From Eledone cirrhosa (Eukaryota), in assembly GCA_964016885.1 (NCBI GenBank), contig OZ024750.1, forward strand, positions 20,460,001 through 20,524,000: a stretch of 64,000 nucleotides of DNA. The letters run 5' to 3'. A program made the translations under genes and the position numbers. Every line of letters starts with the position of its first letter. The first letter of the stretch is position 1. The notes beneath the pieces are model-generated. The model was not told the DNA's origin. It did not search any database and was given only the letters and a program-made list of their open reading frames with translations. Below, one piece after another: positions 1-60,001 of the stretch.

Positions 1-307
1 CCTCGACACTGAAGTGAATCTAAACATCGAGTGCTCACGCGGGAGAACCTACAGTAACTCCAAGTTACATTCCATGGATATATATATGTATAAATATTTC
101 GTATCTCAAACGAAATGCGGTTTTAGGAAGCCGTAGCTATGCTAACGCCCTCTGGTGCCAGCCATCATTGGCTGTGACGTCTTCAAGCAGTCTGGCTTGA
201 TGTGGTAGAGATGGGTACACATGTTGTTTAAGTGTGTTTTACTCCGTCAATACTCCGATGTTTCCAGCTGATGGTTGCGTTGTTATTTCTCTGAGGAACT
301 TCAGTCA

Positions 308-913
308 TATGATTCCAGTTCCTCAGCGAAATTAAAACGCAACCAGTAGCTGGCCATATCGGAGTATTGGCGGAGTAAAACACACTTAAACAACATGTGT
401 ACCCGTCTTATGATTCCAGTTCCTCAGCGAAATGAAAACGCAACCAGCAGCTGGCCATATCGGAGTATTGGCGGAGTAAAACACACTTAAACAACATGTG
501 TACCCGCCTTATGATTGCAGTTCCTCAGAGAAATTAAAACGCAACCAGTAGCTGGCCATATCGGAGTATTGGCGGAGTAAAACACACTTAAACAACATGT
601 GTACCCGCCTTATGATTGCAGTTCCTCAGAGAAATTAAAACGCAACCAGTAGCTGGCCATATCGGAGTATTGGCGGAGTAAAACACACTTAAACAACATG
701 TGTACCCGCCTTATGATTGCAGTTCCTCAGAGAAATTAAAACGCAACCAGTAGCTGGCCATATCGGAGTATTGGCGGAGTAAAACACACTTAAACAACAT
801 GTGTACCCGCCTTATGATTGCAGTTCCTCAGAGAAATTAAAACGCAACCAGCAGCTGAACATATCAGCGTATTGACGGAGTAAAACACACTTAAACATCA
901 TGTGTACCCGTCT
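308..913 (+). repeat. Tandem repeat, 101-bp unit x6
   Basis: Unit TATGATT(C/G)CAGTTCCTCAG...GTGTACCCG(T/C)CT starts at 308, 409, 510, 611, 712 and 813. Confidence 0.95.
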
Positions 914-930
914 CTACCACACCAATTCGG

Positions 931-985
931 ACTGCCTGAAGACGTCACAGCCAATGATGGCTGTCACCGAAATATATATAGCAGT
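931..985 (+). ncRNA. Minimal type I hammerhead ribozyme (stem II closing pair mutated)
   Basis: ACTGC-CTGAAGA-cgtcACAGCCA atga TGGCTGTcacc-GAAA-tatata-TA-GCAGT. Stem I ACTGC/GCAGT, triplet AUA. Confidence 0.75.
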
Positions 986-1228
986 ATTTCTATAATTTAT
1001 AATAAACGAAGCCAAATTATACCTATTTGACTTAATTATTTTATATATATAATAATAGTGATACTATTTATAGTTATGTATATACTATAAACAACTACAA
1101 ACAGGAAAGGTCAGTAATTTCTTACTACCTTATTACCAGTAAGAGAAATAGCTCAATGTAAGCGAATTTGTTCTATTATTGTAGTTTGTATATAACAGAA
1201 AACAGTGCCTTTCTATCACCTTTCGACC

Positions 1229-1598
1229 ATATATATATATATATATATATATATATATATATATACACACATACACCATACACAAACACACACGCACACA
1301 CACACGCACACACAAACCCCCACACACATACACATACATGTATCTCTCTCTCTCTATCTCTCTTTCTCTCTCTCTCTCTCTCTCTCTCTCTCTATATATA
1401 TATATATATATATATATATATATATATATATACACACATACACCATACACAAACACACACGCACACACACACGCACACACAAACCCCCACACACATACAC
1501 ATACATGTATCTCTCTCTCTCTATCTCTCTTTCTCTCACTCTCTCTCTCTCTCTCTATATATATATATATATATATATATATATATATATATATATAA
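1229..1598. repeat. Duplicated compound microsatellite block (TA)n-(CA)n-(TC)n
   Basis: The cassette TACACACATACACCATACACAAAC...CATGTATCTCTC occurs twice, at about 1263 and about 1431. Confidence 0.85.
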
Positions 1599-1599
1599 A

Positions 1600-1785
1600 T
1601 AGTAATAATAATAAATGTGGAGACTAAAATCCAAAGAGGGCTCGATAAGGATAAATATATATCAAATATATAAGAACCCTAGAGCAAATATTTATTGAAA
1701 TAACAGGCTAAAGATTAGGCAAAGAATCACTGCTTTCAGCCTTAACCGTTAAGGGTGAAAGAAGCGATTATTTGCTTTAATAAAT
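1600..1785 (-). mobile_element. (TA)n-inserted short element, family O copy 1, with terminal hairpin
   Basis: Homologous to 7365-7525 and 36280-36400 (AATAATAAAT..GACTAAAATC.AAAGAGGGCTCGATAAGG). Hairpin AATCACTGCTTTCAGCCTTAAC/GTTAAGGGTGAAAGAAGCGATT at about 1724-1770. Confidence 0.7.
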
Positions 1786-57096: not shown

Positions 57097-57462
57097 TCTA
57101 TATAAATAAAAGTCGAATCATGTCCGTCAGTCCGTGTGTCAGTCCATCGGTGGAAGTGGGGTTATAAACAATCTACGAAAATCTAAGGCGAAAAAATCAG
57201 CTTTACATTTGGAAATAAGAGAGAGGGAGGTTGTAATATATATATATATAGAGAGAGAGGTTGTAATATAGAGAAAGAGAGGGGGTTATAATATATATAG
57301 AGAAAGGGGGTTGTAAAATAGAAAAAGAGAAGGGGTTATAATATATATAGAGAAAGGGGGTTGTAATATAGAGAAAGAGAAGGGGTTATAATATACATAT
57401 AGGAAGGGGGATTGTAATATATATAGAGAAGGGGTTCATAATATAGAGAGAGGAGCGTTATC
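57097..57462 (+). mobile_element. Probable Helitron 5' fragment with minisatellite
   Basis: A^TCTATATAAATAAAAG then (GTCC/GTCA)n-like repeats, as at 12258. GAGAAAGGGGGTT(G/A)TAATATATA repeats at 57225-57460. No CTRR end seen. Confidence 0.5.
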
Positions 57463-57567
57463 ATATATATATATATATATATATATATATATATATATAT
57501 ATATATATATATATATATATATATATATATATATATATATATATATATATATATATATATATATATT

Positions 57568-59120
57568 TGTGTATAGTGGTAGCTATGGTGCTTCCGAAGG
57601 CGGTATGCCAAAATTAGCACTCGATATTCATCAGAGTAGAGTTTATATAATATCAAGAAAACGAAAAATCAGTGATGCATCTGGACTTAGTTTATTTCGT
57701 GTTACAAATGTTTCGCCGACATGTAGCTCGAGTCATGGTCCTTGTATGGATCTGACTGATTCTACTTCTGCGGATTCTTTCAGACACGTTTGTTATGTCC
57801 GGAGCAAATTTTATCACTGGGGTGTTGTCATCATGTCTTATGTTATTATACAGTTTTATGTTATTATACTGTTTTTTATTGCATAATGTATTTTCAACTG
57901 TTCACTTTATGTACATGTATATGTGGTGGCACTTCCGTGTGGGTAGGCAGATGTGCATGCGTGCATGTGTATGCATGATGTAGCATGTATGCGCACGCAT
58001 GTGTAGATGTATATAGTTCGGCCTAGGCGTGGGTATTTCTTTGTATATGTGTGGATATGCCTATGCATGTTACGTTGTCCTTTTTTTCTTTTTCTTTTTT
58101 TTGTGTGTGTATATATCTATATGTATATACTTATATAAAAAAAAATATATATATATATATGTGTGTGTGTGTGTGTAGGTGCGTGTGCAGGCAGTGTTTA
58201 TGTACGTATGTGTACGTATGTGTACGTATGTGTGTGTGGACATGTATGAGTTTACGTTTGTGTATATATGTGTGTGTATGTATGTATGTATGTGTGTGTA
58301 TATATATGTATATATATATATACATATAGTTATGTAATGAACAACATAGGATGGTCGTTTCATTTACCAGTGGTTTCTTGAAAGCACACGATATTTACTT
58401 TCATTTATCAGAATGAAAAAGTCCTAGGTGTGTATGTATATCTGTGTATGCACATGTGCGTATATATGTATGTAAATGAATGTATGTTTATATGTGTACG
58501 TTTGAATATGACATGCTTACCCACTTGATACAGAACAGTCAGAAGGCTCGTGGCGGCAAGAATCAACAAGTGTGTGTGACTGGGCCCATGGGAGTGAGGA
58601 AGAGAGGGTGTGTGAGTATATATACTGCGATGTATGTGGCGGTGTGAGTGTCTGAGCATGTAGACCTACGAGTGTTAATGCATAGATAGGTGTATGTCTG
58701 AGTATATATATGTGTGTGTTACTATGTGTTTATTCAAGTATGTGTGTGCTTACTCTGAAGTGTGAGCAGACGTGTGAAGCACTGAACCCAGCATGACTCC
58801 ATTGAAATATGTCAGACGGAAAATAGTTAATGAACCGTGTGGCAGCAGATACTGACCAGAAGTTGTGATGACGTGAAGTAAAAACAGCCAATGGCATAGC
58901 AAGAGTGGAAAGAGGGTTTTTTGAGGGGTTGTTTTGATGACAACACCCCAGTGATACAATGTGCTCCGGATATAACAAACGTGTCTGAAAGAATCCGCAG
59001 AAGTAGAATCAGCCAGATCCATACAAGGACCATGACTCGAGGTACATGCCGGCGACGAAACATGTGTAACATGAAATAAACTAAGTCCAGATGCATCACT
59101 GATTTTTCGTTCTCTTGATA
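57568..59120. mobile_element. Element with about 185-bp inverted repeats 1.1 kb apart, family L
   Basis: 57651-57833 is the reverse complement of 58935-59120. (T)TGATGA...GAAACATGTGTA-ACATG-AAATAAA lies in the arm; (TA)n on both flanks. Confidence 0.8.
58328..58425 (-). mobile_element. Family E copy with decayed hammerhead
   Basis: Minus strand TTCATT-CTGATAA-...-GAAACCACTGGTA-AATGAA. Homologous to 20195-20290. Confidence 0.75.
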
Positions 59121-59461
59121 ATATATATATATATATATATATATATATATATATATATATATAGAGAGAGAGAGAGAGAGAGAGAGAGAGGGAGAGAACG
59201 ACTATGTCGAGGTAACGTAATATAACAAAAGCAAAAAGAGAGAGATAGTGAGAGAGTTATAGAAAGAGGTTAGATAGACAGAACTCTAACGTCGCAGTCA
59301 TCACACCATGTGGGTGTGTATTTATCTGTAAGAGTGGCAGAAGTTTTAAATTTAAAATTAACTGTTGAACATAGATTTTCAACACCTAATTTTAAATTTC
59401 AAATTTATTATTCTTTTTTTTTCTTTTTAATTCTTTTTAATTCTTTTTAATTGTAATATTC

Positions 59462-59512
59462 AACATTTGATGAGATGGTTCACGCTGACACATCGAAACC
59501 GATTATATTTTT
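59462..59512 (+). ncRNA. Decayed hammerhead motif
   Basis: (T)TGATGA-GATG gttcacgctgaca CATC-GAAA-ccgatt. Stem II is intact; the core C and stems I and III are mutated. Confidence 0.45.
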
Positions 59513-59808
59513 AATATTAATATACATTATAAAACTCCTTTTTTAAAAGAATTGTTCCACTCATTTTTTCAATAATGTCATTTTGACGAAACAAGGAAGA
59601 ATTAAAGAAAAACAGATCCTTAAATAAATTGTCCGTGTTATTTCCAATTCCACCTTCTCTCTCGCTCTCTCTCTCTATCTATCTCTCTCTCTCTCTCTGT
59701 ATATATATATATATATATACATGTATATATATATATGTATATATATATATGTATATATATATATATATATATATATATATATATATATATATATATATAT
59801 ATATATAT

Positions 59809-60001
59809 ATTTATTTATTTTATAGAAGGAGCTTCTACAGGACCAGCACTGCCCCACTCAGATGAAATCCTCAGGATTTCATCTGAGTGGCACAGTGCTG
59901 GTCCTGTAGAAGCTCCTTCTATAAAATAAATAAATGTTACTCTGCCATGCATTGAGTACCTTACTCACTGTGGTTATCCCCGACTCAACCCGGGACCTAC
60001 G
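59809..60001 (+). mobile_element. Fold-back element, family K
   Basis: 63-bp arms 59809-59871 and 59873-59935 around a single C, tail to (TA)n. The minus strand has CTGAGGA at the apex. A related degenerate sequence lies at 15145-15205. Confidence 0.85.

Follow-up and report, generated by a model that had tools for sequence, protein, structure and literature searches.

The fold-back elements of this 64,000-nt stretch of Eledone cirrhosa DNA (hereafter the window) are 5'-truncated, 5'-inverted ends of coding Penelope-like elements (PLEs), made up of the pseudo-LTR (pLTR) and a tail, and a separate non-coding class is unlikely. This conclusion follows from the continuity of ORFs upstream and from the differences in the fold-back apex from copy to copy. 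The pattern itself is already published; what is new here is a twin hairpin at both end points of the elements. We consider it likely that the insertions are truncated, often head-to-head inverted 3' ends of Hydra-clade PLEs lodged in (TA)n, and that a bulged hairpin 6-8 nt downstream of each end point sets the start of reverse transcription.

Six of the nine fold-back families named in the initial annotation (those at 154/55501, 20062, 23769, 24277, 41771 and 54148) have copies elsewhere whose upstream sequence leads into a Hydra-clade GIY-YIG ORF, and the reverse transcriptase (RT) was seen for four of them. The link to PLEs that had been drawn from the window was right; the view of these elements as non-coding and mobilised by helpers is wrong for these six families, which have their own Hydra-clade ORF upstream. 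A single ORF with RT and C-terminal GIY-YIG was found in families B, E and F in frameshifted pieces, families A and C show it as the thumb and endonuclease (EN) end or the EN alone, and open frames reach 750 aa in L373 (family D) and 763 aa in L233. The full set of Hydra motifs (RWK, DKT in place of DKG, CxCX5C, CxxC and CxH) is present in the parent ORFs of B and D, and the family E copies seen have RWC or RWH at the RWK position; neither RWK nor DKT was seen in A, C or F. Among 16 aligned EN representatives, a few of them partial or degenerate, the CxCX5C linker, CxxC and CxH are present and CCHH is absent. The loci sampled hold at least 15 Hydra endonuclease lineages, and the named homologs retrieved with the parent proteins are cnidarian, including Hydra vulgaris. 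Pfam gave a sub-threshold GIY-YIG match in one of four parent proteins and none for the relics of the window. The B unit (about 3.9 kb, L178) and the D element (about 3.3 kb, L373) exceed the "generally under 3 kb" of the clade, a tendency of the source paper that is not diagnostic. The 3' UTRs are 0.1-1.7 kb long, and families count hundreds to thousands of copies in this one genome. An apparent fixed 5' end of family F was an artefact of a pattern confined to apices; with an unbiased pattern the UTR extends over more than 1.4 kb and then reaches the ORF. No parent was found for families G, H, I, J and K: upstream searches for H (59809) reached solely TG/TA-rich UTR, and parents of the elements at 20878, 57568, 43808 and 59462 were sought in already sampled loci only.

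The window contains the following members of these families. The family A fold-back (20063..20352, + strand; cores at 20129(-) and 20207(+), tail 20288-20352, junction hairpin 20295-20315) matches at 94% the 3' UTR downstream of the Hydra EN in L296. Family B is represented by the 3' UTR end of a Hydra PLE, without tail (55450..56065, -; well-formed hammerhead at 55550), 95.8% identical to L184, which runs on into the EN ORF, and by a relative (154..1041, +) with an inverted arm at 154-312 and a forward arm at 813-1041 with a core at 936. This relative is 76-82% identical to the 3' UTR of the Hydra PLE in L178 and carries six 101-bp reiterations (305-913) of a UTR segment upstream of the core, in a unit without hammerhead. 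The family C fold-back (23769..24254, +; cores 23836(-) and 24123(+), tail 24189-24254, junction hairpin 24195-24214) matches at 91.8% a sequence lying 120 nt past a Hydra EN match, on its downstream side (L183/L234, one genomic place). That of family D (24279..24669, +; altered core at 24401, 111-nt tail) is 90.8% identical to L324, and Hydra EN lies upstream in many loci. Family E (41772..43655, +) combines a tail-less inverted arm (41772-43042) and a tail-bearing forward arm (43038-43655), with cores at 41872(-) and 43465(+); its inverted arm includes the C-terminus of a Hydra-type GIY-YIG ORF (42917..43039, -), identified by translation and by 88% DNA identity to L224. The family F fold-back (54148..54553, -; cores 54339(-) and 54462(+), the latter mutated; 98-nt tail) is 92% identical to L366, and the loci L366, L367, L368, L370, L377 and L378 carry an EN match upstream of the core, at a distance of about 1.4-1.7 kb. 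Family G is an inverted pair with a tail (57567..59127, -) in which no true hammerhead was seen, H a short fold-back with a degenerate core and a tail (59810..60001, +) whose UTR reaches about 1 kb upstream in other copies, and I a decayed fold-back with a non-canonical core and a tail (20878..21209, -). To these are added a family J end (43808..44058, -) with a loop-less minimal hammerhead at 43925, and a decayed element end (59380..59655, +) with a U3 core at about 59466, previously placed at 59462.

The long inverted repeats listed from the window are all located there (154-309/813-968 with 209-408; 20063-20273; 20975-21209, at 70%; 23771-23873/24086-24188; 24279-24554; 41772-42299/43038-43562; 54248-54553; 57651-57833/58935-59120; 59810-59934), and the unpaired tail was also correctly recognised. 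Each family has two fixed 3' ends, 58-111 nt apart and mostly at a TA, and both end classes were present in the 8 families tested. The insertions lie in or next to (TA)n, as first noticed in the window. Such a tract adjoins 156 of the 179 tail ends and 227 of the 237 tail-less ends, 383 of 416 classed ends in all, whereas the share among random locus positions is 14%; two Neptune-like families are part of this count, and 26 ends falling at other positions are left out. One insertion outside a TA tract has a 16-bp duplication (L006/L007, probably one event). The apex changes from copy to copy, being different in nearly all of 26 copies of family F (parsed from 30 loci), and the fold-back is therefore made at insertion. 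The spacing between inverted cores ranges from about 55 to 1654 nt in one sample and from about 90 to 3300 nt in another. Often the arm without the tail is by far the longer one (family E in the window; L184, L065 and L366), and in some inserts (L178, L097, L093) both arms carry the tail, or neither does. In full-length copies the order is tail, leader and ATG.

The hammerheads are of the minimal type I, as proposed at the outset, and their excess over chance was borne out. One core subtype has 22,872 exact matches genome-wide, versus 79 for the reversed pattern. In the window, 5 cores (20129-, 20207+, 43465+, 55550- and 6500-) satisfy a strict type I descriptor, versus 0.22 in shuffled sequence (100 shuffles, maximum 2), and 4 satisfy a second descriptor, versus 0.015 (200 shuffles, maximum 1). 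Stem I covaries across families. The strict descriptor retains four of the cores initially described as well formed (20129, 20207, 43465 and 55550, the last with a fold z of -2.97). At 936, 24123 and 54339 the stem of the copy in the window is weak or interrupted, but the families of these cores keep stem I. A hammerhead is seen near the 3' end in A, B, C, E and F; most D copies have an altered core (U4 to C in most of the young ones, which are 99% alike), the 20878 family has CUGAUCA or CUGAUAA, and the core of the 59809 copy is degenerate. The match at 57634 (family G) was rejected as a chance match because it sits within a tail hairpin and is missing from other copies. An inverted partner lies within 1.5 kb for just 9 of 30 and 11 of 30 pattern-sampled cores. 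Rfam gave no hammerhead at the gathering score, no other family for the elements, and no hammerhead among the matches listed at E<=10 (150 of 260).

The tail-less and the tail end alike are followed, after about 6-8 nt on the 3' side, by a small bulged hairpin. This hairpin is made up of a GCUC stem, a variable inner helix, a U-H bulge and GAGCACU; in this genome the inner helix and bulge were read by eye. The descriptor matches 11 of the 22 junction peaks with downstream sequence, at offsets of 5-8, versus 1.0% of other TA sites. Among the 11 peaks that fail it, five (D twice, F, H and I) show by eye a mismatched or offset-shifted core, and the others are minor or spurious. Hydra elements of other organisms have the hairpin twice in their leaders: the core 7-mer occurs in 36 of 48 leaders (0.5 expected), and at least two motif copies in 38 of 48 regions. 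In this metagenome set, which has close relatives among its loci and in which 18 of 81 motif rows are without partner strand, 58 of 63 motifs have the U-H bulge and the first inner pair is C-G in 44, U-A in 15 and U-G in 2 (n = 63). Inner positions pair at 2.33 of 3, versus 1.60 when strands are swapped (5000 swaps, maximum 1.97); the outer stem gives little covariation because it is nearly invariant. Of 21 matches of repeat copies off contig ends, 12 stop 0-8 nt short of a stem; the 9 other ends do not fit the stem position, some being near contig starts. The two copies of the motif are 34 to 115 nt apart, each with a constant offset to an element end. The second is found past the tail end, some tens of nt ahead of the ATG, and is absent from the inserted DNA. 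Single hairpins fold weakly (z from -2.5 to +0.5, the outer stem missing from the MFE structure in 3 of 9), and a MAFFT alignment of 53 hairpins was not structural. By eye, Neptune tails have no such motif, so it is not PLE-wide.

These elements resemble in many respects the Hydra clade of Craig et al. 2021 (PMC8557442), which includes Hydra-1_Obim from Octopus bimaculoides: a single ORF with RWK, DKT, CxCX5C linker, CxxC, CxH and C-terminal GIY-YIG, a hammerhead near the 3' end, (TA)n targets, a 5'-truncated inverted copy and a tail at one end. They differ from the clade as described there in the number of EN lineages and of copies per family, in their 3' UTRs, and in their 65-111 nt tails, versus 30-40 nt. 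The twin hairpin is absent from the available portions of that paper's text and supplement. The short or absent stem III with a palindromic loop, the many dissimilar families per genome and the opposite-strand pairs 100-700 bp apart, there ascribed to truncated PLEs, are shared with the minimal hammerheads of metazoan PLEs (Cervera and De la Pena 2014, PMC4209133); unlike these, six families here are traced to a parent ORF, and several cores have a long, bulged stem II. Like non-LTR retrozymes (bioRxiv 10.64898/2026.07.22.740005; PMC7229834), they include ORF-less copies with pLTR-related type I hammerheads, but retrozymes are head-to-tail tandems with a core per unit and no ORF, an arrangement not seen here, where the elements are head-to-head truncation products of coding elements.

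The closest functional parallel is Poseidon of Anolis carolinensis, studied in vitro (Frangieh et al. 2024, PMC11167929), in which the tail is bounded by two internal RT start sites and both strands of an AT-rich target are nicked; a dimer is predicted, the hammerhead is dispensable, and RNA 3' of the start sites is required. It belongs to another clade, with start sites in an AC-rich stem-loop within the ORF, and the accessible part of the study leaves its binding motif undefined; here the candidate start sites belong to the 5' leader, and a copy of the hairpin follows each of them. The twin hairpin may be the signal for two such start sites. By analogy, a protein dimer would bind the leader at the two hairpins and nick both strands of the (TA)n tract, and one cDNA would be primed at each start site. 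Both cDNAs would copy the same upstream RNA (the pLTR with the hammerhead, then the 3' UTR, then the ORF), usually stopping early, and the joining of their ends would give one arm with the tail and the other without. The hammerhead would be carried along, probably unneeded for insertion, and a fold-back transcript is predicted to form a long duplex rather than the ribozyme. We further lean towards the hairpin duplication as a ruler of the Hydra clade, with one protein per copy, an RT start at the UA 6-8 nt upstream and twin priming producing both tail and inversion, and with the hairpin pair acting as a portable (TA)n signal.

The motif could instead be a DNA site that EN recognises in cDNA or double-stranded DNA, with cleavage at the TA 6-8 nt from it serving to resolve a snap-back or tandem intermediate. 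Its inverted-repeat character would suit this reading, the tail has been attributed to EN-mediated resolution (PMC8557442), tail-dependent EN cleavage of plasmids is cited in PMC11167929, and self-priming was put forward for palindromic junctions (PMC3846280). We nevertheless regard it as unlikely: the second hairpin is not in the inserted DNA, a longer tail-less arm cannot arise by simple snap-back from the tail-bearing strand, and the Poseidon start sites coincide with the tail ends in vitro (PMC11167929). A role of the motif as promoter or in translation, with a merely incidental distance to the element ends, seems very improbable, since both copies hold the same end offset despite their variable spacing; the second copy's position shortly upstream of the ATG and the PLE promoters in or near the pLTR (PMC6765202) speak in its favour.

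Turning to the elements themselves, several features would suit non-coding, retrozyme-like mini-elements moved by helper PLEs: the majority of copies are short with no ORF, the 5' ends of B (near -120 from the core) and H (near -5) are clustered, no parent ORF was found for five families, and PLE-derived retrozymes exist (bioRxiv 10.64898/2026.07.22.740005). This origin is quite doubtful, as all six families traced to their end reach an ORF, the fixed 5' end of F disappeared, and the window's sole tandem array has no core in its unit. Inverted repeats with TA flanks also recall TIR MITEs that owe their movement to a DNA transposase and are framed by TA duplications, an explanation already refuted for families A-F and next to impossible overall: the head-to-head arms are unequal and variable, as is the apex, they run on into RT and GIY-YIG ORFs, and the duplication at the one insertion outside a TA tract is of 16 bp. 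The initial annotation was right not to class them so. Truncated Hydra-clade ends remain the preferred reading.

PLE reverse transcriptases are the sister group of telomerase. In the available part of the only in vitro study of a PLE, the start sites were mapped and the RNA signal was not (PMC11167929). A covarying, repeated hairpin at a fixed distance from both ends is a directly mutable candidate signal for internal RT start, and long open frames of young families are available (L373, L233). Should the signal act in trans, a leader some 150 nt long could steer cargo into TA microsatellites. Many seemingly unrelated short repeats of this genome are PLE ends, and the 893 'unclassified SINE' families reported for Octopus vulgaris (PMC13282606) might, at a guess, include some of the same kind. 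If transcribed, the long fold-backs, which number in the thousands, would supply ready-made double-stranded RNA on which editing or silencing could act.

Both GIY-YIG relics first flagged as relatives of the helpers (2990 and 32850) are real, and they differ in kind. The one at 32887..33162 (-) is a decayed Hydra-type relic (tblastn E 4e-6 to the family A endonuclease), whereas that at 2898..3524 (+; GIY-YIG part 2898-3333, followed by a 3' UTR; 81% DNA identity) is a decayed piece of a Neptune-like PLE family with its own tail and was rejected as helper or parent of the fold-backs. This family has 21,643 first-look candidates and long open frames elsewhere, including one of 1228 aa in L091 with a CX2-5CxxC linker ahead of the C-terminal GIY-YIG. 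A second Neptune-like PLE is present as a 3' end with tail at 15290..15640 (-), and the same tail also occurs at 60424-60479.

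Hammerhead cores are far more frequent in this (TA)n-rich window (GC about 33%) than in shuffled sequence, as the initial annotation had expected: a strict type I scan gave 5 matches (0.22 in shuffles) and a further one 4 (0.015). In the whole genome (3.0 Gb, 1796 contigs), exact matches to one core subtype number 22,872, against 79 for its reversed control, and those to the core of family F (at 54148) 2,867 against 0. Stem I covaries between families: among 22 clusters with at least three copies, drawn from cores gathered without any stem requirement, 3.9 of 5 positions are paired, versus 2.15 when partners are swapped (maximum 2.86 in 5000), the 20 smaller clusters (mean pairing 3.05) being excluded from this test. 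Not all of the proposed cores held up: 57634 is a chance match in a tail hairpin, the observed copies of family I (20878) have a non-canonical core, and those of H (59810) and K (59380) are degenerate. The proposed inverted repeats are all present in the window, and additional fold-backs occur at 6206-6900 (with a core at 6500 on the reverse strand that passed the strict scan), 15973-16102, 34682-34803 and 63606-63746. About one third of pattern-sampled cores (9/30 and 11/30, some pairs having both arms counted) lie no more than 1.5 kb from an inverted partner.

The paired cores are oriented head-to-head and lie between about 55 nt and 3.3 kb apart. In each family, 3' ends fall at two fixed positions separated by 58-111 nt, mostly at TA, which we call the tail-less and the tail end; in full-length copies the tail between them continues into a leader, followed by the ATG. 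Targeting to (TA)n was confirmed, since most element ends adjoin such a tract: 156 of 179 with the tail and 227 of 237 without it (background 14%). Among 26 copies of family F, almost every one has a junction of its own, which indicates that the fold-back hairpin is formed at insertion and not inherited. In flanks, the 5' truncation points of family B (154 and 55450) cluster between -113 and -127, where they border a hairpin, and those of family H lie no more than 10 nt upstream of its core. At 305-913 the window holds six reiterations of a 101-bp unit that covers UTR positions of about -121 to -21 relative to the core, the core itself being absent from it. Two sampled loci of the genome (L296, L105) carry two hammerhead copies in the 3' UTR of family A (20063), about 1-2 kb apart, with TG-rich sequence between.

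The elements had been taken for non-coding units mobilised by Penelope-like element (PLE) helpers. The link to PLEs stands, but for families A-F the non-coding status does not, because longer copies reach ORFs. Reverse transcriptase (RT) and GIY-YIG endonuclease (EN) were found for family B (L178, L184) and family E (41772; L224, with EN in further loci and its C-terminus in the window at 42917-43039). EN was also found for family A (L296, L231), for C (23769) at one place 120 nt upstream, for D (24279) upstream in many of 30 loci, with a 750-aa frame in L373, and for F 1.4-1.7 kb upstream in six loci. The parent proteins bear the defining motifs of the Hydra clade (PMC8557442), and their named homologs in a homolog search are cnidarian. 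Clustering the 56 EN matches at 75% identity gives 16 groups; since two of these represent a single family broken by a frameshift, there are at least 15 lineages. Families A-F are thus very probably truncated ends of Hydra-clade PLEs. Tracing family H upstream in other copies reached no ORF, and no parents of G (57567), I, J (43808) or K were present among the sampled loci, the set checked. Two very abundant TA-embedded families, Q (24765-24971, 61274-61369) and P (1599-1783, 7366-7650, 36274-36399), were found in 44 and 39, respectively, of 234 loci plus the window; in L183/L234, P leads into the beginning of a Hydra ORF, and no parent of Q was seen in this set. The ends of a further Hydra family lie at 1042-1161 and 23601-23749, with its ORF start in L365.

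As first stated, the fold-back finding represents a dense instance of a known phenomenon, because earlier studies describe minimal hammerheads in many dissimilar families and opposite-strand pairs 100-700 bp apart, put down to truncated PLEs (PMC4209133), inverted copies truncated at the 5' end, tails, insertion targeted to (TA)n and a Hydra element of octopus (PMC8557442), and palindromic junctions (PMC3846280). What is new is a twin hairpin. Tails that are otherwise unrelated have in common a purine-CUC strand followed by an inner helix, a U-H bulge and GAGY-RCU. The motif starts 5-8 nt past the tail-less end and recurs beyond the tail end in families B, E, P and X (the last met in flanks); P and Q both have the junction hairpin. 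A descriptor of the motif matches 11 of 22 junction peaks versus 1.0% of other TA sites; five of the failing peaks keep the core by eye, with a mismatch or shifted offset, and the others are minor or spurious. The first pair alternates between A-U and G-C among families of this genome, and hairpins taken singly show only modest folding.

The motif recurs in other organisms. Of 77 related-element loci on metagenome contigs, we analysed the 48 whose leader reaches 190 nt or more. Among 7-mers found de novo, the 3' strand of the motif ranks first (36/48 leaders, 0.5 expected), and at least two copies, mostly 53-74 nt apart, occur in 38/48 regions with one mismatch allowed, some third copies being chance ORF matches. 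A partner strand was found for 63 of 81 motif rows, with first inner pairs C-G (44), U-A (15) and U-G (2) and a U-H bulge in 58, although rows include related elements and the counts overstate independence. Inner pairs score 2.33/3, versus 1.60 when swapped, and TA is most often 6-8 nt upstream. In 38 loci examined, 21 hits away from contig ends show a second leader copy diverging from the first; in 12 of them the divergence falls 0-8 nt ahead of a stem, several times directly into (TA)n. No matching family was found in Rfam, and no description in the openly available papers or the supplement searched. The twin hairpin is a well-supported conserved feature.

It may well be the initiation signal of reverse transcription. 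The simplest reading would assign one hairpin to each RT start site; binding, priming and joining are all steps that we infer. Two cDNAs would be primed from opposite strands of the TA tract, copy the same upstream RNA and join at their stopping points. Twin cDNAs joined in this way would give head-to-head arms differing by the tail, either of which can be longer; the longer arm is indeed tail-bearing or tail-less, varying among copies. The hairpin could instead act as a DNA site, but an RNA signal is favoured because tail-ended inserts never contain a copy of the second hairpin. For anole Poseidon, PMC11167929 reports nicking and extension of both target strands, RT starting at two internal sites that bound the tail, a requirement for RNA 3' of these sites, insertion persisting in hammerhead mutants, and a predicted dimer. 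Family D has recently amplified with a changed hammerhead core, which fits a dispensable ribozyme. At family A tail ends (L001-L030), variable short additions, often the last bases repeated and followed by (CA)n, separate the tail end from (TA)n; slippage at priming may be their source.

Of two GIY-YIG relics suggested as relatives of the helpers, the one near 33,000 is Hydra-type, whereas the one at 2898 comes from a Neptune-like family that is abundant and shares the architecture of Hydra-type elements. A 1228-aa Neptune-like PLE frame (L091:1780-5463) has a long asparagine-rich insert in its N-terminal part, resembling those of rotifer Penelopes (PMC3846280). An open frame of 1000 aa or more (L101:1-3000, reverse strand) lies next to a PLE copy, and the PLE match is repeated four times on contig C2, at intervals of 53-58 kb. 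Finally, the window contains a near-intact non-LTR retrotransposon (46474-50125, reverse strand) with two long frames of 600 and 635 aa (RVT_1, E 2.5e-21), trinucleotide tracts near both ends and a C-terminus that presumably resembles an R4/Dong-type restriction-like endonuclease.
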